DNA of 64,000 nucleotides from a virus (Duplodnaviria > Caudoviricetes), in the IMG/VR virus record IMGVR_UViG_3300043803_000118, positions 6,480-70,479 of that record, one strand, 5' to 3'. The position numbers and the translations under genes were made by a program. The notes beneath the pieces are model-generated. The model saw only the letters and a list, made by a program, of their open reading frames with translations. It was not told where the DNA came from and did not search any database. Positions 6,083 through 45,400 of the stretch are shown one piece after another. Each line of letters starts with the position of its first letter. The stretch's first letter is position 1.

Positions 6083-6730
6083 TTATCCCCTATTATTTAA
6101 TTTAAGATCCTTGATGAGACGTTTAACTTCCTCACCTAAGTATCTTTGTACCTTTTTGTCGCCCCTTGCTTCTCTAGCGATATCCATAACTTTATGACCA
6201 TGCTTCATATTCATGAGGCTTTCGTATATTGCTTTAGGATATGCGTTAGGTGCGCTTGGTTGTGCGACTATATCTACAGTGATGATTTCAAAATCACTGA
6301 CCTTGCCATCTAAGTCGTTCACATTACCTGATCCACGACTTGAAACGCCTAGTTTCACACCGCTCTCCAACATAGTTCTTACTAATTGACCCATTGGAGT
6401 TGGTAGAATTTTTAATTTACCGAAACCGTTTGCGCCATCCATCCACATACTTGTGATCATATGACTTACACGGTCTAGGTTAATCTTTAAATCGTCTGGG
6501 TGATCTACTTCACCCAACACTGAATAACCTTCAGATATTTGCTTGTTCAACGTTTCGACTGCGGTCTCAATTTCAGAAATGGGGTAAACACGCTCATTTG
6601 CGTTCTTTACCCCTCCCTGAATGAAGATACCCTTCATATAGAGGGTCTTCAGATCGCCGTCTTCCTTTACGGATTCGACAACCATGTTCGCTCTATCGAA
6701 CGTTAGGTGCTCTTTGAGATACAAAGCCAT
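6083..6730 (-). CDS. gp21: Prohead core protease, T4 gp21-like
   Basis: GIFIQG..KNAN.RVYP, LGEVDHP, INLDRVSH, KLGVSSRGSG, DIVAQPSAPNAY. Confidence 0.95.
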   Translation of the reverse strand: MALYLKEHLTFDRANMVVESVKEDGDLKTLYMKGIFIQGGVKNANERVYPISEIETAVETLNKQISEGYSVLGEVDHPDDLKINLDRVSHMITSMWMDGANGFGKLKILPTPMGQLVRTMLESGVKLGVSSRGSGNVNDLDGKVSDFEIITVDIVAQPSAPNAYPKAIYESLMNMKHGHKVMDIAREARGDKKVQRYLGEEVKRLIKDLKLNNRG

Positions 6731-6752
6731 TGTTCTCCAAGTTTCCTTTTAA

Positions 6753-7547
6753 TTAGCCTTTGGCCACGATGCTCTTGCTATTTGCAGAGCCATCTTTGGT
6801 TACGGGTTTTGGTGCAGCAGTTAAATCAACTTTTGCTTTACCACCTGGTACGTTCTTGAATGAACCTGCACCTGGTAGATCGCCTTCTTTCTTGCTGTAC
6901 TCATTTGATGGGCCTTTTGGACCATTTGGTACAGACTCAGCAGCGCCTGCGAATTTGACAGGCTTGCTGTCCATTCCCTTTGCTCCTGAATTTGCTGTTA
7001 CTGGGCTCTTTGTTTGAGCGCCATTATCACCGTGTGTTACTGATACTTTCTGAAGTTGTACTGCTTCCATAACTTCTTCTTCCATAGCATCATCTGACAT
7101 TTCCATCATGTCATCTTCAACTTCTTCTTCGTCGCCCATGTCTGCGTCACCGCTCATGAGTGATTCAAATTCAGCCATTAGATCATCTAGTTTATCTTTG
7201 ATGTCGCCTAAGTCAGCCTTATCAACTGAACCTTCTTCATCATGATCTGCTTCTAGATCGCCAGTTAAATCGTCGCCTGCTTCTTCTGCTTCATCGTCAA
7301 AATCGATGTCTGCTTCGTCTTCGGCTTCTACAACGTCACCTGACTCTTCGGCTGAGATTTCGTCCATTAGATCGCCTACTTCGCCCACCATTGATGATTC
7401 TTCAGTATCCATCATCTCTTCATCCATGATTGACTCATAGATTTCACGGGACTTTTCGACCACGATCTCGTGGAATAATTCTTTTGCTCTGTCTTCTTGC
7501 TCATTGATAATGAGGTCAATAAGCTGTTCAAATTTCTTGTTTTCCAT
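6753..7547 (-). CDS. Highly acidic prohead core protein
   Basis: D/E-rich middle, basic G/P/K-rich C-terminus; lies between portal and protease; SD AGGAG. Confidence 0.65.
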   Translation of the reverse strand: MENKKFEQLIDLIINEQEDRAKELFHEIVVEKSREIYESIMDEEMMDTEESSMVGEVGDLMDEISAEESGDVVEAEDEADIDFDDEAEEAGDDLTGDLEADHDEEGSVDKADLGDIKDKLDDLMAEFESLMSGDADMGDEEEVEDDMMEMSDDAMEEEVMEAVQLQKVSVTHGDNGAQTKSPVTANSGAKGMDSKPVKFAGAAESVPNGPKGPSNEYSKKEGDLPGAGSFKNVPGGKAKVDLTAAPKPVTKDGSANSKSIVAKG

Positions 7548-7583
7548 TGTAAGTTCTCCTGGTTAAAAATGGCTTTGTAAAAT

Positions 7584-7590
7584 TATTTAG
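7584..7590 (-). promoter_or_regulatory. Late promoter core CTAAATA for the head operon
   Basis: Motif upstream of the SD and the ATG at 7547. Confidence 0.55.
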
Positions 7591-7665
7591 TGCGTAGTTA
7601 TAAAAAGCACTCAATAAGTGCTATTTTTTTACGTTTTTGTGGAAATAAGGCTAAGAATAGCCAGA

Positions 7666-7896
7666 TTAGGCAGCAGCCTGTTCTTGAGGCTGATTGGCCG
7701 CGCCATACTGCTCACGCACTTTCTTTAGATGTTCTCTCTTTTCATAGTTACGAACATCCAACATCTTGCGCAATTTACGCAATTGTTTCAACGTTAATTT
7801 AGTTTTGCGTGAAGTTCTCCATACAGGTTTGCTGTTATCTTGATTGACATCTTGATAACCTGCTATTGGAGCATCAAACATTTCAAATAGTTTCAT
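7666..7896 (-). CDS. Small head-module protein (76 aa)
   Basis: MKLFEMF start; basic helix RKTKLTLKQLRKLRKM; directly follows the portal gene. Confidence 0.7.
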   Translation of the reverse strand: MKLFEMFDAPIAGYQDVNQDNSKPVWRTSRKTKLTLKQLRKLRKMLDVRNYEKREHLKKVREQYGAANQPQEQAAA

Positions 7897-7901
7897 ACTA
7901 T

Positions 7902-7908
7902 TATTTAT
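7902..7908 (-). promoter_or_regulatory. Late promoter core ATAAATA, 5 nt before the ATG at 7896
   Basis: ataaata-atagt-ATG, with no SD. Confidence 0.55.
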
Positions 7909-7909
7909 C

Positions 7910-12700: not shown

Positions 12701-13550
12701 TTTGATAATCTATGCTTGCTCTTCTTAATTTTTCTCTATCTTGTAATTCACCTTTAATTGAACGTCCCGATGCCGCTTGTAATGCAAGATAATCTGCGGT
12801 ACCCTGCATCATCTCTTCTTGGGATATGCCAAGACGCATCATCTCTGCACGTTCTTCTGATGTAGCCTTGACTAACTGTGCGAATTCTTTTTGTGCGGCG
12901 CCGGCATTATTACCAAGAATCATTATATCAGAGCCCAAACCCTTCATAGGTTTGATCATGCGACCTAATGTCTCGGCATTTAGGTCCGCATCACGGGCCA
13001 TCTTTCTCAATGATTCAGTAGTATGGGCTCCTGCGGCGCCCATCTTGTTTAATTCATTTTTGCCGTCTAAGTAACTCTGTGTTATTTTTAGTTGTGCTTC
13101 AAGTAATACCGTAAGACCTTTAGTCAAACCACCTATGAGTAGCGCCCAACCACCTAATGCCTTACCTACACTTAGTGCGGCATCACCGACAGAACTGATG
13201 GCTCCGCCGAATTTAGTTATATTAATAGACTGATCTAGTAATGCGCCGCCGAATGATCCTAACGCTTGTTTTGCTTTGTCAGACGCATCTTTGAGATGCA
13301 TCTCGCTTTCACGTAGTTTTTTCTGTGCTTCAAGTCTGGCTAATTCGGCTTCAGTCAATCCCCTCGCACTTCTAGTCAGTCCGTCAATCGCTTGACCTGC
13401 CGTTTGACCTGCGGCACCTTGCGCTTTAACGCTGCCTGTAGTCTTTATACTGACTTGTCCAAAATCAGCCAAATTGGTCGATAGGGAGTTTAGCGTCCTA
13501 TTTAAACGGTCTATGGAATCATTCAGTTCGTCTATGTTGATATCAGCCAT
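9726..13550 (-). CDS. Tape-measure-like protein with a C-terminal N-acetylmuramoyl-L-alanine amidase (Amidase_2-like) domain
   Basis: Long Ala/Gly-rich helical protein with hydrophobic stretches; IIVHHTGG..GYHYMVDQDG..AWHAG..NSNSVSI..GH motifs; terminal GG...GP.TGYPATLHG.E.IVPL motif. Confidence 0.75.
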   Translation of the reverse strand: MADINIDELNDSIDRLNRTLNSLSTNLADFGQVSIKTTGSVKAQGAAGQTAGQAIDGLTRSARGLTEAELARLEAQKKLRESEMHLKDASDKAKQALGSFGGALLDQSINITKFGGAISSVGDAALSVGKALGGWALLIGGLTKGLTVLLEAQLKITQSYLDGKNELNKMGAAGAHTTESLRKMARDADLNAETLGRMIKPMKGLGSDIMILGNNAGAAQKEFAQLVKATSEERAEMMRLGISQEEMMQGTADYLALQAASGRSIKGELQDREKLRRASIDYQTSLMDLASLTGKDVASLKEKQKENALDAQRQVKLMADQIKIDDLTKAGRLDEAAAVRREMEQREKALDALADAPEALRKGAKEMLITGTISGEESRKLARNNMQGPMAEFANSLKEGKDAQLATAKVEQDYYAEQKNRLRSSERALLVSEQARKDFDFNNVEDNKKRSQRMNQNLEQDLIDIRAGRKKAQQPGQDAPADAQAKIQEATIKASGAVEDVAMKLPIMATAALAAAGALGMLVLAAKKASAGGVMDKIKGIMPFGGGAGGGLPGTGGVVPGGASGIPNVSPASAGAAGNAGKAAGALGAGGGNILEGAAKGLKAFANPMVLAGAAGFGVAIAAVGAGLAGATWIMGKALPSLAEGLQPFEKLDGSKLVDSGKGIAAIGGGLAVFGAGGAAAGIGGIIGGLSDKLGNFLGVDGPMKKLEEFDKLKIDGDRVKKNAEAFMAFNKAFAVGGGASAVGGMGNLIGGFTDKISSRLGIEGPFKKLQEFGELKINSANVKNNAEAMASFGDAMSKYKGTDQGMWGTLSEGVASFFQIDAPYNKMEKFAKIDLGSDGAKRVKTNAQAFVYFSQALAEFKGGGELANAADNIVGGIVKMFGGDDVMGKFVKFTKLDVDPDRALKLGQAFAAYSSAMSGTAGGGTAAPQAKPVKPGATTGGGTGGGGGGSGSKPAAAVGGGGGGVSVPSTPSGGGVMDWASGWASKLLGGGSKDSEKVPSDDAEGKVGGGGGGPAGPLKMGAADAGDAAKGPRKKTDGIIVHHTGGRGLQSAISTLKARGLGYHYMVDQDGSITEFVPGDQKAWHAGKTDKQPGLTNSNSVSISLVAKDDSDVSTAQLKSGFDLGKSLMSKFGASMVFGHGETSSHKQATEGKTLAEALRSGKIPTKVSADAGGLAMGPETGYPATLHGNEMIVPLDPNSFLAELGKKTNTEIQAQMQDKAAAMGSKDPEAFKELVAINQSMMEMMSNKLDSVINRLETSNSTQDKLLKYSQA

Positions 13551-13584
13551 ATTGCTCTACTTTTTTCTGGGTGTTTTTTATACC

Positions 13585-13592
13585 TATAAATA
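13585..13592 (+). promoter_or_regulatory. Perfect T4 late promoter TATAAATA (drives the gp26-like gene)
   Basis: Exact consensus, followed by SD GAGGA and the ATG at 13644. Confidence 0.7.
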
Positions 13593-13599
13593 ACAATAC

Positions 13600-13607
13600 T
13601 ATTTATA
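13600..13607 (-). promoter_or_regulatory. Perfect T4 late promoter TATAAATA (drives the tape-measure gene)
   Basis: tatttata on the plus strand, facing the 13585 promoter. Confidence 0.7.
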
Positions 13608-13643
13608 ATTGGAAACATATCCAATATTTAACGAGGACAAAAC

Positions 13644-14468
13644 ATGGAAAACAACCCACTAAAGCAGTATTTTCGTAGACCAGCAGTACATTTCAGACTT
13701 CCCAGCGAGGGTAAAGGATACATGCTTGGTGTCATAGACATCCCTGAATCAGGGGAAGTTCCTGTCTATCCCATGACTGCGCTTGACGAAATTACTATCA
13801 GAACACCCGACGCATTGTTTAATGGTAGCGCGGTTGTAGAATTGATCAAGAGTTGCATACCTGCAATCAAAAATCCATGGCGATTAAACGCAAATGACTT
13901 AGATGCGGTATTGATCGCTATCAGAGCGGCAAGTGGTCAAGATCAGTTAGAGGTTTTAACAACATGTCCAAAATGCGAGACAGCATCAACTTATGGATTG
14001 AAACTAAATGCTATATTGGCTCAGTTGAAGCAAGGAGATTATGATACTCCTTTATTAGTGAATGACTTGAGTATCAAATTCAGACCATTGACATATAAAG
14101 AGATGAATGAAGCATCCGTTGAACAATTCAAGATACAACGTCTTTATGGAAACATTGACGACATCAAGGATGAAGAAGAAAAGAATAAAAAGACACAGGA
14201 CGCAATACGTGCTATCACAGAAATAACGATGAAAATCATTGCAAACACTGTTGAATATATCGAAACTCCTAATGCAAGAGTTGAAGAAAAACAATATGTC
14301 GATGATTTCTTGCACAACTGTGATGGTAGTGTCTACGTAGCGATTCGTGACCATAACGCAAAATTAAAGAACAGTACTGAATTAAAGCCATTAAATGTCA
14401 AGTGTATGAATTGCACTCATGAATATGAACAACCCTACACATTAAACGCCAGCGATTTTTTCGGCTAA
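13644..14468 (+). CDS. gp26: Baseplate hub / tail assembly chaperone, T4 gp26-like
   Basis: NPLKQYFRRP, LPSEG, PMTALDE, LIAIRAAS; CPKC and CMNC Zn pairs; ends DFFG. Confidence 0.75.
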   Translation: MENNPLKQYFRRPAVHFRLPSEGKGYMLGVIDIPESGEVPVYPMTALDEITIRTPDALFNGSAVVELIKSCIPAIKNPWRLNANDLDAVLIAIRAASGQDQLEVLTTCPKCETASTYGLKLNAILAQLKQGDYDTPLLVNDLSIKFRPLTYKEMNEASVEQFKIQRLYGNIDDIKDEEEKNKKTQDAIRAITEITMKIIANTVEYIETPNARVEEKQYVDDFLHNCDGSVYVAIRDHNAKLKNSTELKPLNVKCMNCTHEYEQPYTLNASDFFG

Positions 14469-14504
14469 GACTTCTTACCGCTGGCCCCGAAGCCGTAGAG
14501 AAGT
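14456..14504 (+). promoter_or_regulatory. Candidate programmed -1 frameshift signal: T_TTT_TTC, 7-nt spacer, stem-loop
   Basis: Heptamer 14456-14462 is in the correct phase; stem ACTTCT/AGAAGT, TAC/GTA, GGC/GCC at 14470-14504. Confidence 0.6.
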
Positions 14505-14692
14505 ATATTCAAGAATTGGACAAAGAAGTAGAGGGCATCCGTAAATCAGCACTAACCATGTCCTGGTACATGAGAGGTGGTGCTACTTACGAGGATGTTC
14601 TAAACATGTCTAATTCGGAAAGAAAAGCAATCAGTGAATTAATCGATGACCACATCGATGTAACTAAGAAAACTCAACTTCCGTTCTTCTAA
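14462..14692 (+). CDS. gp51-like ORF in the -1 frame, probably expressed as a frameshift extension of gp26
   Basis: Frame open 14429-14692: RLRLLTAGPEAVEKYIQELDKEVEGIRKSALTMSWYMRGGATYEDVLNMSNSERKAISELIDDHIDVTKKTQLPFF*. The W..RGG..Y....M...ER pattern resembles gp51/tail-chaperone C-terminal ORFs. Confidence 0.7.
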   Translation, partial: RLRLLTAGPEAVEKYIQELDKEVEGIRKSALTMSWYMRGGATYEDVLNMSNSERKAISELIDDHIDVTKKTQLPFF

Positions 14693-14702
14693 TCTGTTTG
14701 GA

Positions 14703-14760
14703 AGACAAACTTCGTTTGTCTAAGTCTTCGCTGTCGCTCAGACTTATATTTTCTTTTGTT
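14703..14760 (+). terminator. Tandem hairpins plus U-rich tract, likely terminator
   Basis: GACAAAC-TTC-GTTTGTC and TAAGTCT-N12-AGACTTA followed by TATTTTCTTTTGTT. Confidence 0.55.
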
Positions 14761-14764
14761 ATCG

Positions 14765-15115
14765 GATTATATTGCCGCCTTAGAGTCCATGGTAGTGCTA
14801 TTCAGCACTACCATTGGTAAAGACATTGCCATGCCCTATCACCCATGTCGTCTATTCCCCAACACACTAGCCTGTTTGCTGTATGTTGCTACCGGTTGCC
14901 CTGTAAAGTTTATGGGACTGTAGTGAGATACTGTTACATATCTCGGCAACGCATGTTCTATAATCGCAAGACAAAGTAGATTATAGACTCATTGAGGGTT
15001 CGCAAACCTGTCGATTGCCCTCTCGGTTTTCCGTAGATGTTATTCTACGCTTACTCCAGATCCGTCGGCACAGCACTACCTGTACTTCCTCAAGGAGGGT
15101 CGAGCACCTCGACCA
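14765..15115 (-). ncRNA. Candidate large structured non-coding RNA of unknown family
   Basis: No ORF of 60 aa or more; GC-richer than flanks; at least 7 stems including an 11-bp perfect hairpin (14789-14814); a G-U pair favours the minus strand. Confidence 0.5.
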
Positions 15116-15126
15116 AACTAATTGTA

Positions 15127-15699
15127 TTAAACGATGTTTTGTATTTTATCTATTGTGATGTTGTATGCTGATTTTGAGTCGGTCTCTGTTTTGCCTGAAC
15201 AATATGATTTAAGTAGGTCTTTGTTGAGTTTGAAAAAATGATCAAATTCGATTATGAGCCAATCTTTGTGTTTAGTAGACGAGTAATATAAAAAATTGTC
15301 AGTAACCCAAGTCACGCTAGTTTGTACTGCTACAAACTTGCCCTTCCTGTTAAACTTCATGAACAATATGTTTAAGTCATCGTTTTCAGCAACAGCCATC
15401 ATCTGATCAAGCCATGCATCTAATGTCTTACAGTCTCCTGCAAGAACTTGATGAAATGGAAAATCAGCGTAACTTTTGCACTCTGCGTTCATTTTACTGA
15501 AACTTTGTCCGGGCACGATGTCGCCTTTGAAACTGCGAATCTGCCCTTCGTGTAATATCTGAGTGCGCACTTGATTCTTACCTCCCACATATGCCCCAGA
15601 TCCGGGGGCGCGAATAAAACTCTCATTATAGAGTTTGCTAAGATGTATAGCGACTTCGCGCTCAAAACTGTTTCCTTTTTGTTTCTGTGGGTTAGGCAT
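15127..15699 (-). CDS. Holliday junction resolvase-like PD-(D/E)XK nuclease
   Basis: KQKGNSFEREVA..RAPGSGA..GDI..ECKSY. Start revised to MPNPQ (15699) because ATAAATC lies 5 nt upstream; the ORF track start is 15726. Confidence 0.8.
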   Translation of the reverse strand: MPNPQKQKGNSFEREVAIHLSKLYNESFIRAPGSGAYVGGKNQVRTQILHEGQIRSFKGDIVPGQSFSKMNAECKSYADFPFHQVLAGDCKTLDAWLDQMMAVAENDDLNILFMKFNRKGKFVAVQTSVTWVTDNFLYYSSTKHKDWLIIEFDHFFKLNKDLLKSYCSGKTETDSKSAYNITIDKIQNIV

Positions 15700-15733
15700 A
15701 TCTTGATTTATCTTGTTTTCACGCACTAAAAAA

Positions 15734-16855
15734 TTAATTAGTCAAATAACCTACGCTGTAACTCTCATTACTTACAGCACAGTTATTGCACTTCTCTTCA
15801 CATTCTACAAATGCTTTTTCTTTATCTTTAAAACTTCCGAACAACTTTTCCCACACATCATCGTTGATTATCTCTTCGAGGGTGCGTGTTTTTATATTCA
15901 TCAAGTGTTCATATTTTCTGAATAGACTTTCTTTACCTGCTATCACCTTATCAGTGATAGGACTTTGTCGTTGATAATACGGGGCGGCTACCCAACTACA
16001 AGGATATATCTGTCCATCAGCGTTTAAGTACAGACCTCGATTACCTATTAAACATAATGGCATGATATAATCGTCTTCATATTCTTTCTTTATCTCAAGC
16101 CACTTTTGTTTGTTTGTGTCTAGGTATTCTGTGTTATCTAATACTCTATTGCTTAATTTAATGGTACGTCTTTCATAGCGACCAGACTTGCTGATATATT
16201 CGCTTCTTGGTTCTAACGCATCGTAATTATCATCTGTGTTGTAAGTACCGAATCTACTACCGAACTTTATGCTTCTAGTCAATTGCAAACTATCGCAGCC
16301 GTATTTTTGTGCCATAGTACGTATCTGTTGTAGATGGTCTTGATTGAAACTGAATATGATACTGGCCCATGTCACATATGCTTTTTTATTTGTAGTGACA
16401 GTGGTGAGACCTTCTATGATACTGTCCCAATTGCTGTTTACTCTATATAGGTTGTTGCTAGCATCATCATATCCATCTATGCTAAATGCTATGGTGTCGC
16501 GTTCGTTAGATATTTCGCGCAACTCCTCCCACCATTCTTTCTTTCTATAACTACCATTGGTGATCGTGTAGATGTGTATGTTTGGATTCACTGTCTTCAC
16601 GTAACGTATGATATCGAGATAATCTTTACAATATATAGGATCACCTACGTCACCACACATAGTCAAACGTTTTACCTGCGTCAATAATAATTCTTCGCTA
16701 AAACATTTCTTGAAAAGTTCTAATGATATTTCTTTTTGCAGCCATGGGATATCCTTGCGCATCTCTGTGCGCGGACATCGCGGGCACCTAATAGGACATT
16801 TACTGCTAGGTTCTATATGCCAGTGGTAAAATTGAAATCCATATTTGTTAAGCAT
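15734..16855 (-). CDS. Radical SAM protein with C-terminal SPASM/twitch-like domain
   Basis: CPIRCPRC triad, CGDVGDP, ITNGS, FSIDG; C-terminal C..GLYLNADGQIYPC...CEEKC..C. Confidence 0.9.
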   Translation of the reverse strand: MLNKYGFQFYHWHIEPSSKCPIRCPRCPRTEMRKDIPWLQKEISLELFKKCFSEELLLTQVKRLTMCGDVGDPIYCKDYLDIIRYVKTVNPNIHIYTITNGSYRKKEWWEELREISNERDTIAFSIDGYDDASNNLYRVNSNWDSIIEGLTTVTTNKKAYVTWASIIFSFNQDHLQQIRTMAQKYGCDSLQLTRSIKFGSRFGTYNTDDNYDALEPRSEYISKSGRYERRTIKLSNRVLDNTEYLDTNKQKWLEIKKEYEDDYIMPLCLIGNRGLYLNADGQIYPCSWVAAPYYQRQSPITDKVIAGKESLFRKYEHLMNIKTRTLEEIINDDVWEKLFGSFKDKEKAFVECEEKCNNCAVSNESYSVGYLTN

Positions 16856-17375
16856 ATATCATTAATTCTTTTATAAACTTATTTTCTAATGCATACCGAA
16901 CGACTTTAGCGACCTCTAATGGGGCCATCTTCACACAGTCATGTTGTTTTATCATGTCTGTGTCAGTGGCACCTGGACTTATTAATACTAATCTGCAGGA
17001 CATAGGAAAACCAATCATTCTCCTAAACGAATCACGTAATGCACGTTTGTGATTACGATATGGCCAGTCTTGATTATCTAATTGTCGTTCTATTCTAGGA
17101 TAGTCAGTGACTATGCTTCCTATACTTATGATAACTTTATCTGTACCTTTCCATTGAATATTCATCGTCTTTAATATTTTTTCTTGTTCGAATTCATGAT
17201 ACGCATTATTGATGAACACATCACAATCTTTAGAAGCGTCTACTATTTTTTGCGTATCCTTGATGTCATATCCATTACTACGGCTCAGACCGATCACTTC
17301 ATACCCTTGATCTGAAAATACATCAGCAATCGCTTTACCTATGCCCTTAGTATGGCCTGTTATCGCTATCTTCAT
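16848..17375 (-). CDS. Short-chain dehydrogenase/reductase (minimal SDR)
   Basis: TGHTKGIG Rossmann motif, FINNA, catalytic S..YRNHK, ISPGATDT. Confidence 0.88.
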   Translation of the reverse strand: MKIAITGHTKGIGKAIADVFSDQGYEVIGLSRSNGYDIKDTQKIVDASKDCDVFINNAYHEFEQEKILKTMNIQWKGTDKVIISIGSIVTDYPRIERQLDNQDWPYRNHKRALRDSFRRMIGFPMSCRLVLISPGATDTDMIKQHDCVKMAPLEVAKVVRYALENKFIKELMIYA

Positions 17376-33454: not shown

Positions 33455-36400
33455 ATGACCAGAATACGTACACTAGAATTTTTACCGGGCATATTCCAAA
33501 CTGAAACTAATAGTCAGTTCTTAGCAGCCACGCTCGACCAATTAGTCAATCCTCCTGTAACACAAACTATACAAGGATTCGTGGGTAGTAAATTTGGTTA
33601 TGGTGTTGACGCTAAAGATTACTATGTAACAGAACCAAATAAAGTTCGTAGAGATTATCAATTAGAACCGGGTGTAGTATTCTTAAAGGACAATGAAACT
33701 ACTGCCTACGATTTTATTAGTTATCCTGGCATAATTGACTCATTGAAGTTGCAAGGTGCTATCACTAGTAGAAACGATGAGTTATTTGAAAGTCAGTTCT
33801 ATAGTTGGGACAGTTTTACTAACTTAGATAAGATCATCAACTATAATCAGTATTACTGGTTACCTGACGGTCCTCCCGCCGTAATAGTTGCGGCTTCAAC
33901 TGTCTTTACAGAAAACGATTACATAGTCAATTCACTGCCAGAAGCATACAATATCAGAGCAGTAGGCGCAGGTGTTGGTACTAATAATCCAACAATCACC
34001 TTATTAAGAGGTGGTACATATAATTTTATAGTAGATCAAAACACAAGATTTTGGATACAGGGCGAGCCGGGAGTAACAGGCTATAGTCCTACGCAGCCTA
34101 ATTTAAATACTAGAGACGTATACGGCGTTAACAACAACGGTGAAGACCGCGGCGTAGTATCATTTCAAGTACCTCAAAAAGATGCACAGAATGAATTCAA
34201 TTACCCCGGTAATAATACAGTAGGTGTTGTTAGCACAAGACCTTTTAGCCAGATCAATGGTGCAAGATTAGCAGACATTGGCGGTATTGATGGGGTCACG
34301 GCACTAAATGGTAGAACAGTTATGTTCTACAATACCGGCGTAACTAACGAGATAGGCTATGTTAGTTCATTCTTTGATCAATCAGCATATGATAGAAATA
34401 CAGGATCTATTTCCTCACCGCTGACTATCAATGCTAGTTCGATAAATGGATTAGGTGCGATCACAGTAAGCAACGTTTCACAATTACAGATAGGACAGAC
34501 TGTAACATTTGTAGGAACTGGTTTTGGTGGTATACAGGCATATAATGCTGACGTAGAAAATGCTATATCTACCAATAGTTTGATTGTAGGAAAGAAATAT
34601 TTCATCGATCAAGTGGGAACGAGTAACTGGATCAATCTTGGCGTAGCATCAAGCGCAATAGTAGACGCACAGATTGTAGGTACACAGTTAAGAGTTTATA
34701 AAACTGTTTCTGGTTCATTCAGTATAGGTGATACATTAAATGGTTCAGGCGTAACTACAGGCACCAAGATTCTTGATTTTGATGAGATTGCTACCAACAA
34801 TAATTATTTGAATGCGTCAAGTGTCACAGTAGGTGATTCATATCTTGTAAGATCATTTGTAGACGGTGCAGGAAATACAACCGACTTCACAGCGATGGGC
34901 GCTCCTGCTTCTGGCGTTATCAACGGTAGCATAGTAGGTACTGTGTTGACTGTGAACAGTATATCATCAGGTGCAGTCAATGTAGGATCTTATATAACAG
35001 GTCCCGGCATAGTAAAAGGTACTTACATCGTAAGTCAAGGTACTACGGCTAACACATATGTTATAAACAAGACACAGGTCGTCACTGGTCCTATGACATT
35101 ACAGCCAAGCGTGAACACATTGTTTACGGCTACTGCTGTGGGTTCAGGTTCAGGAACAGTGAGCATACCTACATATACAGTAAGCATCAACCAAACTGTT
35201 GCTAGAAGTAATATCAATGTCTATCCTATACAAGAAGGTACTATATTCACAGCAGCCGCAAACGATGCAGGCAACGGCTTTGTAATCCCATTTAATCCAG
35301 ACATTTATTATGTGACTGGTATTAATACTGGAACAAATCAAATCACTATAAGCCAATCATTAAATGGTCCTACGTTCTTACCTACTAGCCCCGCTAGCGG
35401 TTCTATGACTGTTAGAATCAATCAAGGATTGTATGAGCAAGGATTTTATACTCAAGTAAACGACACATTCTATACTGTAGTATTCTTGGGTGATGCAGAT
35501 GATCCTGTTCTTAGCCTAAGACCTGCAGGTTCTATACCTATCGAACAAAAGATCACACCGCAATACGGTACACAATATGTTGGACTGCATTTCGTTAAAA
35601 ATTCTACTGGTGTGATACAAGAATTACCGTACATCTCTGCCCCATTAGACACATTATATTATCAAGACGGTACTAATCCTAACAGAGTAGGCGTCATCAA
35701 ATTGATTGAAAACAATGAGACTAACTTGATCGATGTTGACGCTGATATATTAGGTAAAACGAATTATACATCAAAGAATGGTGTAGTATTCACTAATGGT
35801 TTGAAAGTCTCATTTGATGGAGATGTCATACCACGAAGTTATCTAAGTGGTGAATACTATGTAGAAGGTGTGGGCACTGCTATAGAATTAATATCTGTGA
35901 CTTCATTGGAAGTTCCGGAGCCCTTCACTACATCAACATACAGCCCATATGATATATTACCATATGACATAGGACCGTTTGATGAAGGTTTAAATATACC
36001 TAACAATTCAGACTATATCACAATAGCAAGAAATAGCATTAACAAAAATGCATGGGCGCGTAGCAATCGTTGGTTCCATATACAAGTCATACAAGCGACT
36101 GCGGATTATAACGATAACTCAGCCATACTTGATGAATATGCCAAATCAACAAATAAAGCAAAAAGACCTATACTTGAATTTTATCCTAACTTAAAATTAT
36201 TCAACTCAGGTACTATAGGTAAAACTGCTGTAGATTTTGTTGATACTAGAACAACCAATGCATTTGAGTATGTAGAGAATCAACAGAATTATTATCCTGA
36301 TGTACAAACATATACCGCATATCAAGGAACTGTAAATTCTAACAACACACCTATCACTGTAGCCAATTTATTGATAGATCAATATTATGCTATAGAGACT

Positions 36401-39400
36401 TTAGGATCGACTTCTACTGTCACTTGGCAATCATTGGGTGCAATACAAGATCAAGATGGTGGATTTGAAATAGGTGTAGAATATATCATAACAGATTTGG
36501 GTACCACTACACAGGCTAATTGGAATTTTATCGCTGGTACTACTACTACCCCAGTCTCATATTCGGTGGGCAATAAATTTACAGCAAAACAATCAGGTAC
36601 AGGTACCGGCAACGGTACTGCGCTCAAAGTATTGTTCCAAACATCACTTGCCGGTGTATTGAATTCTGATGAACTTGCATCTGGTCAAATGTATACGATC
36701 ACTTCATTGGGTACCACTCAGTGGAATAATATAGGCTATGTCGGTACTCCTATAATAGGTGGCACATTTACTGCTAGCGGCCCTGCTATTGGTACGGGTA
36801 CTGCTATACAGGGTAACGGAACTGTAAAACAAAAAACTACCACGACAGTAACTATCGATCCAGATCATGTCACGGGCACATTTAGTCAAGGTCAATGGAT
36901 AAATGATCTAAGATTGAATAATCCAAGCGCGTTGCCTATAGGTACTAGAATACTTTCTATAGAAAATACAGATCCTTATCAGATGACTGTATACTGGCCT
37001 ATACCATCTAACAACATAGTTTCGGCAGTGACCAGTGCATCATTTGTAGCAAGCACAAAAGACAATACTGATTTATTGTTGTTTCCCGGCGCTAGAGTTG
37101 TGTTCGCAGCAGATGAAAACCTATTGATAAGAAACAAGATTTATGTTGTGGGCTTCAACAACACTGGATCAGAATCATATCCAGTCATCACATTGACTGA
37201 AGCAGAAGACGGCTTAGTTTTAGAAAACGACATGTTCAGCGTTGAGAAAGGTTTCTCTAATAAAGGAAAAACTTTCTATTTCGATAGTGATGAATATAAG
37301 CAAGCACAACAGAAACAAACAGTTAACCAAGCACCGTTATTTGATATCTTTGATGAAAACGGCATAAGTTATGGTGATGAAACTGTCTACAACAGTTCGT
37401 CATTTACTGGATGTAAACTGTTTAATTACAAGATCAGTGAAGGTATAAATGACACTATTCTAGGATTCCCTATCAGTTTTAGTTCTATTAACAACGTAGG
37501 TGATATCTCATTTGAAGTGTCATTATATACACAGCAATTTGATTATATCGACAATGGAAGCTCAGTCACTTCATATGTAAATAATGGATTTGTTTATGAT
37601 TACAATACCAGAGATGAATATGATAGATTGATCGGCTGGCAGACAGCAGTAGCACCAAGTACACAGTATCAAGTATTTCAATTTGAATATGTTGCGAATG
37701 ATCCTGCATTAGTCTTAGAGCCAGAACAGACTTTTGATTATGTAGTGACTGTAGACGTACCGCAATTAAGTGTTGATACAACGATATGGCCTAGCCTCGA
37801 AGTTTACAACAACAATAATATATTGACATTGGGTACAGATTATACTGTAGAAAACAAGATCGATTCTACAGTGATCACTATCAAGTTGTCTGAAGATATA
37901 GACACACCTATTGAAGTGTTGATATTGAGTAACAAGGTAAGTGCAGATGCTTATTACACTATACCTATCAACTTAAGCAACAACCCATTCAATAGCAATC
38001 CAGATAATGTAGACATCGGTGACATACGCGGTCATTATCAAACTATTTTTGATAATAATCCAGACACATCAGGCGTGATGTTTGGTTCTAACAATTATCG
38101 CGATCTAGGTAACATGGTACCATGGGGCAATAGAATCATACAGAATAGCGCAAGCCTTGTATTGCCCGGCGCATTCTTGCGTAACCCAAGACATAACTTA
38201 TTTGATTCTCTATTATTCAACAGCAGAGAATATATCAAGTTCAAGACATTATTAGTCGATACCACAGACAAACTTAACATTCAGCAAAAATATGATCCGG
38301 CGCTTATACTTGATCTAGCATTGGATACTATAACTTCAGTCAAGAGCCAAGACCAACCATTCTTCTGGTCTGACATGATACCTAACAAGGCACCATATAT
38401 CAGTCAGACATATAACTTTAATAATCAAGCAGAGACTAGTGTATTTCCATTAAGCAAGATTTACGATTTTAGTACTGCTAACTATGATGGTGTTCTAGTT
38501 TATCTACAAAGAAAGATACAGGGCATCGTAGTTACTAAGCAATTAGTAAGAGGCACAGATTATGTAGTAAGCATAGATAGTCCTAGCGTGACAGTCAACG
38601 TGTTTTTACAAACCAATGATAAAATCATAGTCAAAGAATATAATCAAACTTATGGTTCTTATATCCCCAACACTCCAACTAAGTTGGGTCTATATCCATT
38701 ATATCTACCTTCAGTAGTATTGGATAATACATACATAGAACCTACTTATTTCATACAGGGTCATGATGGCTCATATAATAAACTATATGGTGATTATAAT
38801 GAAACTCTAGGAATGTTAGTAGACTTCAGAGATCAAGTGTTATTAGAGTTTGAGACTAGAGTTTATAATAACATCAAACTAAGTAGAACATTACCTATCG
38901 AAACTGCTGAAATCGTTCCGGGTTATTTCCGCGACACAGCATTATCATATGTTGAATTCACAGAAATATATAGTAAGAATTTCTTAGATTGGATCGGTCA
39001 AAATAGACTTGATTACAAAACACAATTATATAACGCTAACGATCCTTATACATACAACTACAGAGACAGTAGTTTAAAATTAGATAATAGCACAGTGTTG
39101 CAAGGATATTGGAGAGGTATATACGAATACTTGTATGATACTTCTACACCAAATTTGACACCGTGGGATATGATCGGTTATGCAAATAAGCCTGTCTGGT
39201 GGGAAGATCGTTATGGTCCTGCCCCATACACAAGCAATAACTTAATTTTGTGGACTGACCTACAAAACGGTATTGATTACAATGGCGGTCAACCAGTAGT
39301 AAGAACACTATATAAGAGACCGGGATTGCTAGAGATAATTCCTGTTGATAGTCAAGGAGAACTAAGACAACCAATAGATGCAGTCATAGGTAACTACAAC

Positions 39401-42400
39401 CAACTGACATTTAAGCGCGACTGGAGAGTAGGTGATGACGCACCTGTAGAATATTCATATCGTAAGAGTTCTACATATCCTTTCGATCTAATGAGACTTG
39501 AGGCATTATTGAAGCCAGCAGCATTCTTTAATTTGGGTGCTGACTTAGACAACTACAAATATAACGCTGAGTTCAATCAATTCTTGGTCAATGAAAGAAA
39601 TCACTTAGTACCAGCCAACATAGAAATTTATGGTAATGGTACTGCCAAGACAAGTTATATCAACTGGGTAGTTGACTACGAAAAACAATTGGGCGTTGAT
39701 GCTACTAAGAATATCAAAGAATTGCTAACTAATCTTGATGTAAGATTGGTATATCGTTTAGCAGGTTTTAGCGACAAGACACTATTGAAGTTTTTCGTTG
39801 AGAAGGGAACACCTGAGTCACGTAATAGTTCATTGTTGATTCCTGACGAAAGTTATCAGATTCTACTATATCAGAATCAACCTATGACTAAGTTGATATA
39901 TTCTGGTGTTGTAGTACAAAAAATGCAAGAGGGTTATGCTGTGTTCGGCAACAGCCAGACTACAGCATTCTTTAAAATATTGAAGCCTATATTGAACGGT
40001 CCTAAGAAAAGAGTCACTGTTCAAGATGCAACGGTAAATGTAGCAGACAATTATTCTAGCGAAGAAGAGATCGTGCCATATGGTACAATCTATTACAGTC
40101 TGCAAGATGTAAGCCAATTCTTGATGAGTTATGGTGCTTGGCTAACAGCCAATGGAGCAGTGTTTGATGATCAGATACAAAACGTTGCTATCACTTGGAA
40201 TCAAATGGTAGCAGAATTCTTGTATTGGACACAAACTGGATTTATCGACGGTAGCATTATCACATTGAATCCTTCTGCTAGAAAGTTGACTATCGATAAA
40301 GAAAGTCAAGTTGTCCAGCCATTGACATATGATAACAGTAATTTTGTATTGAACAATAATATGTATCCAATACAAAATAAAGATTTGAGCATTTTCAGAG
40401 ATGGTACTAGATTTAGCATATCACCATTAAATGAAGGTGATGCAGTATCATATGGTCAATTTAGTTTGAGCAATATTGAACATGCGGTCGTATTTCAAAA
40501 TGAGACATTGTTCAACGACACTATCTACAACTTGGAATCTGGATTGAAACAAAATCGTATCTATGTTCGCGGCACTAAGAGCGGTGAATGGAACGGTACA
40601 TTGTTCGCATCAGGATTCATCTATAATCAAGATAACATACAAGAGTGGGTACCCGGATTAAAATATACTAAGGGTGCCATCATCAAGTACAAGAACAAAT
40701 ACTTCACAGCATTGAAGATAGTACAACCAAATCTAAAATTCAAAGAAGATGAATGGAAAGAAACTGACTACGATGAAGTTCAAAAAGGATTGCTACCTAA
40801 CAGTAGCACACGTAGTTATGAAAGCGCATTGTACTATAATGCAAATAAAGCAAACCTAGAACAAGATGCAGACTTGTTGAGTTTTAGTTTGATAGGATTC
40901 AGACCACGTGAGTACATGGCAAGCGCAGACTTGACAGATATCACACAGGTAAATGTTTACAAAAATCTAATCAGAGAAAAAGGAACATTGAATGCAGTGA
41001 AGGCATTCAAGGGTGCAAACTTACCGCAAGGCGGAATCGATTATGATGTCTATGAAAACTGGGCTATAATGCAAGGCACGTTCGGCGGTACGTTGAACGA
41101 TAACTTTGTTCAGTTCAGATTAAAAGAATCTAATCTCTCAAACAACCCGTCTATTGTAGGTATCACTGACGGCAATGATATAGAAGGTGCACAACAATTA
41201 GTACCGTTATATTCATTGTTTAATTACGGCAGACCTGTCACCGATCCTAATATACTACCTGAAGTAACTTCAGACATTCCTAGCGCAACATTCCCTACAG
41301 CGGGATATGTAAACGTAAACGATGTTAAGATGTCAGCATATTTCTATAGCAATCTACCAACTGCTGTGGGTAAAGACGGTCTAACTGTATCGTTATCACA
41401 ACTTAATGTCGGCGATTATGTATGGCTTGCTGACTATAAAGCAAGTTGGCAGATAATGACACCATCTAGCGTCGGTAGAGTATTGTTAGTTCGCAACAAT
41501 TTAAACGGGACTAGCACAGTTCGATTTGCCGATAATCATAACTTGAATCGTTATGATATATTTGCTATCATCAATTTTGACGGCTCAGTAAACGGTTACT
41601 ATGTAGCAAATAATATTATTGGTCCTAAAGAAGTATTGATAACGTTGACGTTATCTCCTAGCGTGAGAGCGGTTGTAGGTGAAGGGGCAGCATTGAGATT
41701 CGCCTCACAAAGAGTTACTAAGCCCGGCAATGTACAAAATCTACCGTTATTGAACAATGAATTCACAAAGAATACAGTTTGGGTAGATGAGAATAATGAC
41801 GGAGGTTGGGCAGTATATCGCAAGAACATAAACTTTAAATATCAGCGAGAATTCACAAAAGAAAATAGTCAGAAGTTTGGTTCCGCGGTAGCGTACACTC
41901 CACTCATAGATTATTTGTTTAGTGATCCTAACTTGGGTAAGGTATATCGTTATCAGTTTGATGCAACCACTGGTGATTATGATCTTGATGAGATATTGTC
42001 CGGGGTCACAACTTTCGGTACTACTATAGTTCATGAGCAGAACATAGTAGCAATCTCACAACCAGAGAACACACCTAAAGTTTCATTGTATACTGTAAAC
42101 GATACAAGAGTCACTGATAACATCATATTATATCAAGAAATATTAGCATCAAGCATAGGTGCTTCTATAACTAATTTCGGTAAGGGATTGGCACTGTCAG
42201 GTGATACTAATTGGTTGTTCATAAGCGACTACAATGAAAATCCTATAGGCACAAGAAACAAAGTACATGTATTGCGCAAGAGAAATCAGATCATCGATGT
42301 AGATAATACCACTGTTCTTGACGCCGCGGCGACATATCAGATACTTGATCCTGGCACAGTTAATTGGGTTGATCTAGCACTTGAACCTATCGCTAATGAA

Positions 42401-45400
42401 ACAGGCATATACCTTAAGTGGGACGGAACGACAACACCGACAGGCGAGGGCACGGCTATACGTTGCGATTATCAATATGTCGCTACTATTGACGGGGACG
42501 CTACAATAGATAGATTTGGTTATTCATTGTCCACTAATAATGATGGCACTATACTAGTCGTAGGTGCACCAAGCAAAGATTTAGATGTGGTGAATCAAGG
42601 TCGTTCATATGTATACAATAGATTAGTACAGAATTATGAAGTACCCATAGGAACAACAGCCCCGTTGACATTCACACTAGCATGGAGCCCTACTGTAGGG
42701 TTACCACTGACAGTTTCTAAAAATGGAATCGTTATAGATCCTAGCGATTATTCGTTCTCCGGAACTACGTTTATTTTTACCGGCACTTATGCAGTAGGTG
42801 ATATCATCACAGTAAGTGGCAATCAGTTCGTCAAAATACAAGAGATGAATGTCTCAGAAGACAATACTAGAATAGGCCCGCAGTTTGGACATTGTGTCGA
42901 TAGCAACACCTTTGCTACTGAAATATTAATAGGTGCTCCTTTCTATATTAGTTCTATTAATTCGGAAGGATCAGTGACTAGATATACCAACGGGTCTGCA
43001 AGATTCGGAACAATCACTAGCACTTCAGATGTAAACGTAACGACTACTAGACAATTATTGATAAATGGTTACTTAGTAAGCATACCAGCCGGCAATGCGA
43101 GTGCGGCCGCATCGGCTATCAATAATGCTACGATCACAAATGTAGTTGCATCTGCGAACGGTTCTAAATTAACCATTAGCCTAATTAATTCTAATCTAGC
43201 ATTAAGCAATCAAGAATTATTGATATCAGTGACAAACAATGTTACATTGTCTGAGTTAGGGTTTCAACTCTATGCTAAGACACAGACCATACTCAATCCG
43301 CACTTGACCGGACCTAGCCAGTTCGGCACTGTGATCAAGTTTAACGAACACAATAGCGTAGCAATTAGCGCACCATCTGGTACTCGTTATGCGCTAACTA
43401 CTTTTGATTTTATTGATGATGAAAATTATCAAAATGATACAATCTTTGATAATAATTCAACACAATTCTTAGACTCATTTGCAAACGCAGGTGCTGTATA
43501 CGCATATGACTATCTAAGTAACTATAATGAATCGCTATTGAACATAGGTAATTACACTTATGCTCAAAGCGTAAATGATACTAGCCTAGATTATGGTGCT
43601 CAACCTAGATACGGTTCTGCTCTAGATTGGTCTGCTGGAAGAATTGTTATAGGATCTCCTGACTATAGACCAGAAGACCTAGACGGACAAGTAGTGATAT
43701 ATGATAACACATTAGGTACTACAAACTGGATAGTTTTGAGACAGACTAGCCCTGTCGTTGACATCGACAAGGTTTATAATGTACAACTGTTCAGCGCAGA
43801 GACTAACAATACACTCAGCAATTTAGATTACATGGATCCATTGCAGGGTAAATTATTAGGAGCGATCAGACAAAATATAGATGTAATATCTAATATCGAT
43901 CCTGCAGGTTATAACAACTCAGCCGCTACTGCAACACTAGTATGGGGCGAAGCACAATTAGGAACTATATGGTTCGACACATCAAATATACGTTATGTCG
44001 ATTATCATCAAAACGACAACAGTTATAACGCACGTTATTGGGGCTCATTATTCCCAGGCAGCGATGTTGCAGTATACAGTTGGGTAGGCAGTACTGTGCA
44101 GCCTTCTGCATATACTGGCCCAGGAACTCCTAAAGATATCTCTAGTTATACTGTACAAACAGTATTGAATAGTTCAAATACTATAGTACCTGTATATTAT
44201 TTCTGGGTAAGAAACACAGGCATCATTTACAATGGTAAGTCATTATCTGATATAAACATAACGCAATATTTGATCAATCCAAAATCATCCGGTATCAGTT
44301 ATATGGCACCAGTCAGACCTGATGCAGTAGCATTGTATAACGTAAAGCCATTCTTAAATTCTAATGATACTGTATTGCAATTAGGCTATAGCACCGGTAG
44401 CCAAGACAATCCTGCGCATCAACAGTTTACATTGATTCGTCAAGATTTCCCCGATGATTTCTTGCCCGGTGTTCCCGGAACAAGAGGGTATGTCACACCT
44501 CAAACATTATACGATAGACTGTTAGATAGTATGAGCGGTGTTGACGAGACTGGTGCTGTGGTGCCAGATCCGTTCTTACCAAAAGCAGTTCAATCAGGCG
44601 TATTAGCAAGACCAAGACAAAGTTTCTTCTATAATCGCTATAAAGCGATACAGAATTATCTACAATATGCCAATACTATCATGGCATTGTATCCTATATC
44701 TGAGATTAGATCATTCAACTTCTTGAATACCTCAGGAAGATATTATGATACTACAGACTATTGGGAAAACATCAACTGGTGGGCACCTGGCTACGATAAC
44801 AACACTAAGGCAGTATTACAGGTTCAAGTGTATGCTGACCTGTCTACATTGGAAGTCTCTATAGGAACTATAGTAACTGTAGCACAAAACAGCAATGGAT
44901 CTGCTGAAACATATCGTTATGACGGTGAAGGCGTATGGACTAGAATTGGATTACAGAACGGTACTATCAGATTCAAAGATGAATTATATGATTATTCTGC
45001 GGCTGGATATGGTTTCGGCGGCACGTTCTATGATACAGATAGTTTCGATGTGTTCCCGAGCGAAGAAACACGTTGGATCATACGTGCATTGAACGAGCAG
45101 ATTTATACTAGTGAATTATTGATATACAGAAACAAGAGTTTGATACTATTGTTTGAGTATATCCAAGAAGAGACTATAGAAAATCAAAACTACTTGCCAT
45201 GGTTGAATAAGACATCATTGATTGATGTATCACACAAAGTTCGCGAACTGAGAGAATTAAAGAATTTCGTCAGCGATAACGAACAGTTCCTAGAAGGTTA
45301 TATCAATGAGACTAAACCTTATCACGTAGTGATCAAAGAATTCTCATTCGACTATGAAAGAACTGATGTATATCCAGGCACATTGACTGACTTTGATCTA

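Follow-up and report, generated by a model that had tools for sequence, protein, structure and literature searches.

The locus considered here raises the question of what is encoded in a gap of 434 nucleotides (nt) that carries no credible gene. The gap lies at positions 14693-15126 of a 64,000-nt stretch of viral DNA, hereafter the window (Duplodnaviria; Caudoviricetes; IMG/VR record IMGVR_UViG_3300043803_000118, positions 6,480 to 70,479 of that record), and is set between convergent genes, viz., a gene for a PD-(D/E)XK resolvase-like endonuclease on the minus strand, and the gp26 baseplate hub gene followed by a small ORF (open reading frame) on the plus strand. An earlier reading, made from the sequence alone, had described this gap as ORF-free and had proposed a multi-stem functional RNA encoded just after the resolvase stop codon. 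The longest ORF inside the gap is 55 amino acids (aa), and the comparative evidence, in particular covariation and strand asymmetry, bears the proposal out: the gap encodes a strand-specific, conserved structured RNA of ~345 nt with two pseudoknots. We further propose, as the account that is on balance probable, that minus-strand 14771-15121 encodes a structured non-coding RNA (ncRNA) of a new class, which would be made as a read-through transcript and act in trans in a scaffold-like manner.

A search of IMG/VR with the endonuclease protein recovered 124 relatives, from which 80 loci were kept. The non-coding stretch is present in all 80 with 70-93% nucleotide identity (BLAST, nhmmer), and the endonuclease proteins of the same loci show 64-88% identity. 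Columns of the gap are at least as conserved as those of the coding flanks, with peaks of 0.96 (14787-14806) and 0.90 (14887-14906). Scanning IMG/VR with the motif of the invariant P10 hairpin of the RNA (described below) yielded at least 119 loci or contigs, and among the matches listed the RNA is present in 119 of 119, either whole or cut only by the contig end. The endonuclease and motif sets overlap in contigs; joined, they provide at least 179 full-length copies and at least 121 distinct sequences, with 97 representatives at <96% identity (alignment A1 omits three truncated loci and collapses duplicates).

The minimum free energy of the gap (14693-15126) is -126.2 kcal/mol on the plus strand (z -3.25) and -141.9 kcal/mol on the minus strand (z -5.38), and on either strand none of 100 dinucleotide shuffles folds as well as the native sequence, in keeping with the dense pairing first supposed. 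RNAalifold, run on 53 sequences, predicts 77 pairs, 47 of them with compensatory double changes. Our own model was defined from the window sequence and counted on 98 sequences of <96% identity: standard pairs fill 91.2% of 9093 cells versus 77.4% in shuffled alignments, double-sided changes occur in 71 of the 95 proposed pairs versus 57.6, the covariation score is 0.416 versus 0.169, and 0 of 500 shuffles reach any of the observed measures. In a slid control, with the 3' partners moved by 1-3 columns, pairing is 32-45% and the score 0.064-0.096. The modeled pairs include 606 G-U/U-G cells versus 147 A-C/C-A cells on the minus strand, and the same pairs read on the opposite strand are standard in 86.1% of cells versus 91.2%. 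This asymmetry, along with the z-scores of the folds, places the RNA on the minus strand of the window, which is also the strand of the endonuclease; compensatory pairs on one strand only are the generic signature of a structured ncRNA.

The fold comprises about 11 helices round a four-way junction (P4/P5/P6/P7), with two covarying pseudoknots and an invariant 10-bp hairpin. Its parts are the following, with positions in the RNA counted from W1 = 15121 (Wk = 15122-k):

14771-15121, minus strand: whole conserved RNA, delimited by nhmmer/BLAST conservation, alignments A1 and A2, and covariation
14774-15118, minus strand: modeled core of ~345 nt, closed by P0
15116-15118 with 14774-14776, minus strand: P0 (W4-6/W346-348), GUU with GGC, a weak helix joining both ends
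15098-15114, minus strand: P1 hairpin (W8-24), GGUCGAG/CUCGACC, variable in sequence
15054-15097, minus strand: P2 domain (W25-28/W65-68), CUCC 15094-15097 with GGAG 15054-15057
15032-15049, minus strand: P3 hairpin (W73-90), 94.8% paired, 6/6 pairs with double changes
15024-15028 with 14890-14894, minus strand: P4 (W94-98/W228-232), long-range helix AACCG with CGGUA that closes the four-way junction
14994-15022, minus strand: P5/P5a hairpin (W100-128), GAGGG...CCCUC with inner UCG/CGA
14953-14992, minus strand: P6/P6a hairpin (W130-169), P6a being 14957-14987, 11/11 stem pairs with double changes
14970-14974 with 14848-14852, minus strand: pseudoknot PK-A (W148-152/W270-274), P6 loop UUGUC with GACGA, from mutual-information scans and the model
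14945-14950 with 14895-14900, minus strand: P7 (W172-177/W222-227), GUUGCC with GGCAAC, enclosing P8 and the strand ACUACAGUCCCAUAAACUUUACAG
14925-14944, minus strand: P8, a variable hairpin (W178-197)
14901-14924, minus strand: near-invariant strand ACUACAGUCCCAUAAACUUUACAG within P7, including the 5' strand of PK-B
14914-14917 with 14856-14859, minus strand: pseudoknot PK-B (W205-208/W263-266), UCCC with GGGA, its 3' strand directly after P9
14860-14888, minus strand: P9 hairpin (W234-262), 9/11 pairs with double changes
14814-14855, minus strand: mostly single-stranded conserved segment with nearly invariant columns, comprising a linker, the 3' strand of PK-A, and the motif GG(A/G)UGA(C/U)..GGNC AUGGCAA
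14790-14813, minus strand: P10, a 10-bp hairpin UGGUAGUGCU-GAAU-AGCACUACCA (W309-332) that runs into the palindrome CCAUGG (14787-14792)
14771-14789, minus strand: 3' tail ..UUCAAAG CGGCAAU, with a second GNC..GGCAA-like motif and the 3' strand of P0

All eight stems listed in the sequence-only reading exist at the coordinates that it gave and correspond to P1, P3, P5, P6a, P8, P7, P9, and P10 of this model. Compensatory changes support seven of them; the eighth, P10, is there in the sequence, but covariation speaks neither for nor against it, its pairs being practically fixed (8 of 10 never vary in the 98 sequences, and the loop-closing U-A becomes A-U in 12). The same invariance makes covariation uninformative for most of P2, which is 100% paired with two U-A compensations. 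P2, the long-range P4, PK-A, and PK-B were all absent from that list, and the pseudoknot that it suggested instead, CCCAT (14842) with ATGGG (14912), does not hold, with three of its five pairs being standard in <25% of the 98 sequences.

Among the individual helices, the terminal P0 is paired in 87% of cells, with one-sided U-to-C changes opposite G only. P1 and P8 are too variable for column alignment and were folded one by one: a P1 hairpin of at least 5 bp forms in 94 of the 98 homologs across 71 distinct sequences, with G-U pairs on the minus strand only, and a P8 hairpin of 12-37 nt forms in 97 of 98. The P2 domain has an internal loop with invariant GA and GA and encloses the P2a and P2b hairpin (15064-15089), in which 8 of 9 pairs show double changes. 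P4 is 98.2% paired (double changes in 3 of 5 pairs), and P5 and P5a are 100% and 99.7% paired (6 of 8 pairs). In PK-A all five pairs show double changes, e.g., U-A 56/C-G 36 and G-C 56/A-U 37, as do all four of PK-B, whose first pair is U-A 63/C-G 12/A-U 9/G-C 6; further PK-B compensations, e.g., CUCC/GGAG and CCU/AGG, become visible in alignment A3. The four-way junction is thus clamped by the single 12-nt strand after P9, which pairs with the junction strand in PK-B and with the P6 loop in PK-A, and the junction strands hardly vary in sequence.

Two positions 56 nt apart, W288 (14834) and W344 (14778), covary by identity, being GG in 63, UU in 15, and CC in 11 of the 98 sequences (mutual information 1.16 bits). 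Each lies inside a G-N-C..GGCAA motif, and no third column covaries with them; such a pattern would be expected of a symmetric non-Watson-Crick contact, or of two equivalent sites recognized by one (dimeric) partner. The junction strand CACUAC is complementary to the P10 5' strand GUAGUG, as an alternative to the usual partner of the latter, and all three strands are invariant; judged by complementarity, this is a possible switch. We rejected a candidate pairing between the CGGCAA of the 3' tail and the UUGCCG of the P7 5' strand, as the tail stays constant when P7 changes.

The nearest cultured kin of both flanking proteins belong to jumbo phages, namely Salicola SCTP-2 (42% identity), Pseudomonas PA5oct (40%), Sinorhizobium Phosso, Agrobacterium Atu_ph07, and Klebsiella RaK2. 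RNA-carrying contigs reach at least 524 kb among the matches listed, in agreement with this jumbo-phage affinity, and the matching DNA comes from lake-water metagenomes. The P10 hairpin motif has no exact match in 185,579 prokaryote genomes (one genome per species). A covariance model of 192 positions (W92-276), which scores the window itself at 178.7 bits, finds no significant match at the syntenic loci of PA5oct, SCTP-2, Phosso, Atu_ph07, and RaK2; nhmmer --max and unfiltered cmsearch on the resolvase-gp26 loci of five cultured jumbo phages give as their best foreign match 57 nt of loop at E 0.053, and blastn of the region against GenBank phages found nothing. Because it is absent from the prokaryote genomes scanned and from the syntenic loci of the five cultured jumbo phages, the RNA is an innovation of one uncultured clade of jumbo myoviruses from lakes and rivers, T4-like phages distantly related to SCTP-2, PA5oct, and RaK2. 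A 364-nt gap between the gp26 and endonuclease VII genes of RaK2 was considered as an analog and rejected, as it holds an unannotated homolog of the small ORF that follows gp26 in the window (orf58, below) and a strong terminator. In PA5oct (L201 3170-4680) and Phosso (L203 2260-3273), stretches of 1-1.5 kb with tiny or no annotated ORFs adjoin the resolvase genes; the PA5oct stretch has no Rfam match, and both stretches are without homology to the RNA.

The genomic position of the RNA is nearly constant. Among the at least 119 motif loci listed, the endonuclease gene is directly upstream on the same strand in 91 of the 92 with room for it, and in 100 of 100 gp26 follows the RNA in convergent orientation. 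The sole exception, locus L144, has a gene for a SegE-like GIY-YIG homing endonuclease (Pfam 9e-36; 6718-7161, plus strand) in the place of the resolvase; it keeps the RNA with its full structure, and its 12-kb contig lacks a resolvase. At this locus, the radical-SAM gene that precedes the SegE-like gene appears split into two ORFs.

As for expression, the spacer from the endonuclease stop codon (15127-15129) to P0 is about 8 nt. Exact TATAAATA octamers occur back-to-back at 13585 (plus strand) and 13607 (minus strand) in the divergent gap 13551-13643 between a 1274-aa gene and gp26, a pair from which the use of T4-type late promoters by this phage is predicted. Upstream of the RNA, a TATAAATA with at most one mismatch is found in 23 of 106 distinct stretches, at scattered distances and never exact, i.e., there is no conserved late promoter before the RNA, and a simple promoter/terminator scan of 13400-16000 returned one promoter-like and no terminator-like sites. 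Because neither a conserved promoter nor a conserved terminator lies between the upstream gene and the RNA, we propose that transcription of the endonuclease operon would continue at its 3' end into the RNA, which would then probably be trimmed to the P0-closed domain. A 1199-nt contig from an RNA library, with its end at 14764, links the endonuclease gene to the RNA and gives a weak hint of co-transcription, and a 197-nt contig lies inside the RNA (14901-15069); the RNA is covered by the RNA-library contigs X17 record 10 and X20 record 16. Library X15 covers part of gp26 only, X16 is probably DNA, and those parts of the stretch that are uncovered in the RNA contig sets carry no weight. Because L144 keeps the RNA where a SegE-like homing endonuclease replaces the resolvase, the RNA would act independently, in trans, and would not serve to regulate the resolvase message. 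Most likely it would work as a rigid scaffold binding a protein or itself; candidate contact sites are P10, together with its CCAUGG palindrome, and the two copies of the G-N-C..GGCAA motif, the N of which is the covarying position. More tentatively, the RNA may be the first known of a novel kind of RNA machine in phages. It could then be a new ribozyme or, the likelier form of this idea, a rigid scaffold with two pseudoknots that would associate with copies of itself or with a phage protein; in this last case the neighboring junction resolvase would be the obvious candidate for a partner, with the RNA four-way junction as a candidate Holliday-junction mimic.

Several points weigh against a read-through, trans-acting scaffold. 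The A-rich motif TAAAAATT..GT, which stands just before P1, could be an unrecognized promoter or signal. (In a subgroup of homologs, e.g., L062, L093, L118, and L127, a conserved motif CACAGAACCCU stands before P1 in place of the A-rich TAAAAATT.) The RNA-library contigs reveal neither ends nor strand nor level, and DNA may be their source. Kinship among the aligned sequences can inflate shuffle-based statistics, although the slid control and the per-pair type counts argue otherwise. The evidence from L144 comes from one locus, and that genome may carry its resolvase in another place. Above all, the fixed place behind the resolvase gene fits a role in cis, or one linked to the resolvase, equally well. 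Under that explanation, which we consider unlikely, the RNA is a 3' untranslated region that protects or regulates the endonuclease message, or else a Holliday-junction-mimic decoy or autoregulator that titrates the upstream nuclease. The near-universal same-strand adjacency with its short spacer favors it, as do the four-way junction at the core of the RNA next to a protein of families annotated as junction resolvases, and the contig that joins gene and RNA. However, L144 keeps the full RNA without a resolvase on its contig, the relatives of the resolvase in cultured jumbo phages lack such an RNA, and stabilizing a message takes far less than ~345 nt, two pseudoknots, and a large number of invariant bases left unpaired.

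A further alternative is a ribozyme, e.g., one that excises itself from the operon transcript or acts on another RNA. The size, the two pseudoknots, and the invariant unpaired junction blocks are hallmarks of large ribozymes, and P0 unites the 5' and 3' ends as in an excised domain. Nevertheless, no Rfam ribozyme family matches, the topology is unlike that of group I introns, flanking exons are lacking, and an RNA-library contig spans the gene and the RNA without a cut between them. To our knowledge, other large ornate bacterial and phage RNAs have so far not been proved catalytic, and we hold a ribozyme to be improbable.

A diverged member of a known family missed by Rfam, such as a group I intron remnant, RNase P RNA, tmRNA, GOLLD, ROOL, HEARO, or OLE, is very unlikely, even though the length and pseudoknots of the RNA are within the range of these molecules and the Rfam group I intron models can overlook diverged members. 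Rfam 15 yields no family at the gathering score in the whole window; in relaxed mode, with E up to 10 over 14300-15400, only a snoRNA (E 1.5) and a piece of a long ncRNA (E 5.1) appear, both at chance level, and five diverse homolog loci searched with E up to 5 give only a CRISPR-repeat match (E 3.4). Thus, none of 4227 families was matched at gathering or relaxed thresholds, GOLLD, ROOL, HEARO, OLE, and raiA among them. The group I intron model RF00028 is unmatched in the window, in the relaxed range, and in the five homologs, and the bacterial RNase P RNA models are unmatched in the window and the five homologs. No Rfam tmRNA family matches the window, where ARAGORN finds 0 tRNA or tmRNA genes and no tRNA-like domain. 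The early judgment that this is neither a tRNA, tmRNA, RNase P RNA nor an intron is accordingly upheld by the lack of Rfam and ARAGORN matches; the architecture differs from each of the above families, and the RNA, fitting no family in Rfam 15, is probably a new class.

Specific likenesses nonetheless merit comparison. Group I introns are similar in size and also have a long-range helix that encloses hairpin domains (P4, cf. their P3), and in both a strand within that helix pairs after the next hairpin (PK-B after P9, cf. P7 after P8). In contrast to them, the present RNA has no exons, no P1 U-G splice site, no terminal G context, and no J8/7 (0 nt between P9 and the 3' strand of PK-B); its PK-A has no counterpart in introns, and the PK-B 5' strand is separated from the 3' strand of P4 by 13 nt and the P7 3' strand. 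Its placement likewise differs, as it follows the stop codon of the endonuclease, while an A-rich spacer and the last part of a convergent operon lie downstream of it.

GOLLD and ROOL are roughly 580-800 nt long versus ~345 nt here, and they lie near tRNA genes, whereas this RNA is fixed behind a resolvase gene. They show no sequence or covariance-model similarity to the RNA, which is found in one freshwater jumbo myovirus clade only, with no motif match in bacterial genomes. They are like it in being large, elaborately folded, phage-carried, pseudoknotted RNAs with no known biochemical function. GOLLD, ROOL, and OLE are reported as self-assembling homo-oligomers (PMC12286853). By analogy to the assembly of GOLLD and ROOL, the invariant P10 hairpin with its CCAUGG palindrome could mediate self-association. 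The pRNA of phi29 is another phage-encoded structured RNA, a protein-bound and self-associating scaffold of virion assembly, and the present RNA too is located among head, tail, and recombination genes. However, pRNA is a family of its own, ~170 nt in length, which forms a loop-loop ring in small podoviruses, and similarity to it was not detected with Rfam; a packaging role suggested by this analogy would be pure speculation.

Within the group of relatives, PA5oct has four abundant ORF-free transcripts of 236-619 nt and unknown function, ncRNA001-004 (PMC7318152). They are comparable as ORF-free transcripts of a cultured relative, but they come from other loci (8.3, 22, 103, and 246 kb), and the sections of that report used here describe neither structure nor covariation for them (PMC7318152). 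A catalog of 8495 candidate structured RNAs from IMG/VR ('DNAVirus_N') draws on the same source and the same type of evidence, i.e., covariation in viral intergenic regions; its candidates are short (29-151 nt, mean 67) and could be at most fragments of a 345-nt RNA (PMC10690425). Counting against novelty, pieces of the RNA of up to 151 nt may be listed there (PMC10690425). A prior description of the RNA was not found in the literature, the supplements of that catalog being outside the comparison.

The sequence-only reading had offered a structured DNA element as its alternative, such as a replication origin, packaging site, or resolvase substrate. The position between convergent operons, adjoining a resolvase gene and near portal and baseplate genes, would suit such an element, and the plus strand also folds better than its shuffles. 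Yet the excess of G-U over A-C on the minus strand disfavors it, as does the covariation of long-range helices and loop-to-strand pseudoknots, which a cruciform, origin, or packaging site does not need, and there is no repeat array or AT-rich unwinding element; we regard its chances as slight in the extreme. Least of all do we credit a protein gene that is decayed or coded in an unusual way: a frame of 121 codons is free of stops in one homolog, but the median longest stop-free stretch in any of the six frames is 66.5 codons, column entropy by phase is 0.79/0.81/0.82 in the RNA versus 0.67/0.56/1.08 in the adjacent endonuclease codons, of the 1431 indel runs counted against the window only 239 have a length divisible by three (1192 do not), and the remainder of the window reads well in table 11, so that with no open frame, no three-base period, and few indels in threes, this candidate is rejected.

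Intricate, evolutionarily locked large RNAs are rare, and GOLLD and ROOL remain unexplained; nearly every class that is understood, e.g., the ribosome, RNase P, self-splicing introns, and tmRNA, performs fundamental chemistry or organizes an RNA-protein machine. The present RNA is tractable by virtue of its ~345 nt, at least 121 distinct aligned sequences, two supported pseudoknots, and unusual identity covariation, and its fixed gene neighborhood suggests testable partners. The depth of covariation makes it a good target for structure determination and a benchmark for RNA structure prediction. Its restriction to an abundant uncultured clade of lake jumbo phages may mark a step in the biology of giant phages that model phages lack, and if the partnered scaffold or Holliday-junction mimic is the true account, an RNA would govern how giant phages of fresh water process their DNA or assemble their virions.

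The surroundings of the RNA are those of a distant T4-like myovirus. The record is 70.5 kb long (IMG/VR, estimated completeness 19%), and the gene content of the window includes the portal gp20, the 1274-aa amidase-bearing protein, the gp26 baseplate hub, and SbcC/gp46, among others. The features next to the RNA are:

15127-15726, minus strand: PD-(D/E)XK resolvase-like endonuclease, 199 aa with a GTG start, upstream of the RNA (Pfam PDDEXK_15, 5e-24; PHROG 244)
13644-14468, plus strand: gp26 baseplate hub (Pfam T4_baseplate), convergent with the RNA
14516-14692, plus strand: orf58, a conserved 58-aa ORF after gp26, convergent with the RNA, with no Pfam or PHROG family
14702-14759, plus strand: two covarying hairpins in the fold (14702-14721 and 14722-14745) followed by a T-rich run, outside the RNA core

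The PDDEXK_15 family of the endonuclease is annotated as RusA-like/D14-like resolvase. The small orf58 looks like a conserved gene partnered with gp26 in the jumbo-phage group; in RaK2 (L205 2255-2618, minus strand) an unannotated orf58-like peptide (..SYEMLLNMPVTERDL..) occurs directly after gp26 and is followed by a strong terminator. The plus-strand hairpins of 14702-14759 and their T-run probably terminate the convergent gp26-orf58 operon just short of the RNA: one of them keeps 7 of 7 pairs in the RNAalifold alignment, six with double changes, and the simple terminator scan did not flag them.

Elsewhere in the window, the sequence-only reading had taken the gap with the RNA to be the only long non-coding stretch, which is incorrect, as a 362-nt gap without a long ORF is also present at 7548-7909. 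This second gap lies upstream of the portal gene and has a hairpin and T-run near 7600-7640. The recombination gene block has an unusual insert between gp46 and the resolvase (15734-17375, minus strand), made up of a radical-SAM/SPASM protein of 373 aa and a short, 175-aa SDR-like ORF that matches only the N-terminal part of its family. In the structural gene block, a giant protein is encoded by a single ORF of 6540 aa (33455-53077, plus strand), which follows two ORFs of 1131 aa each.

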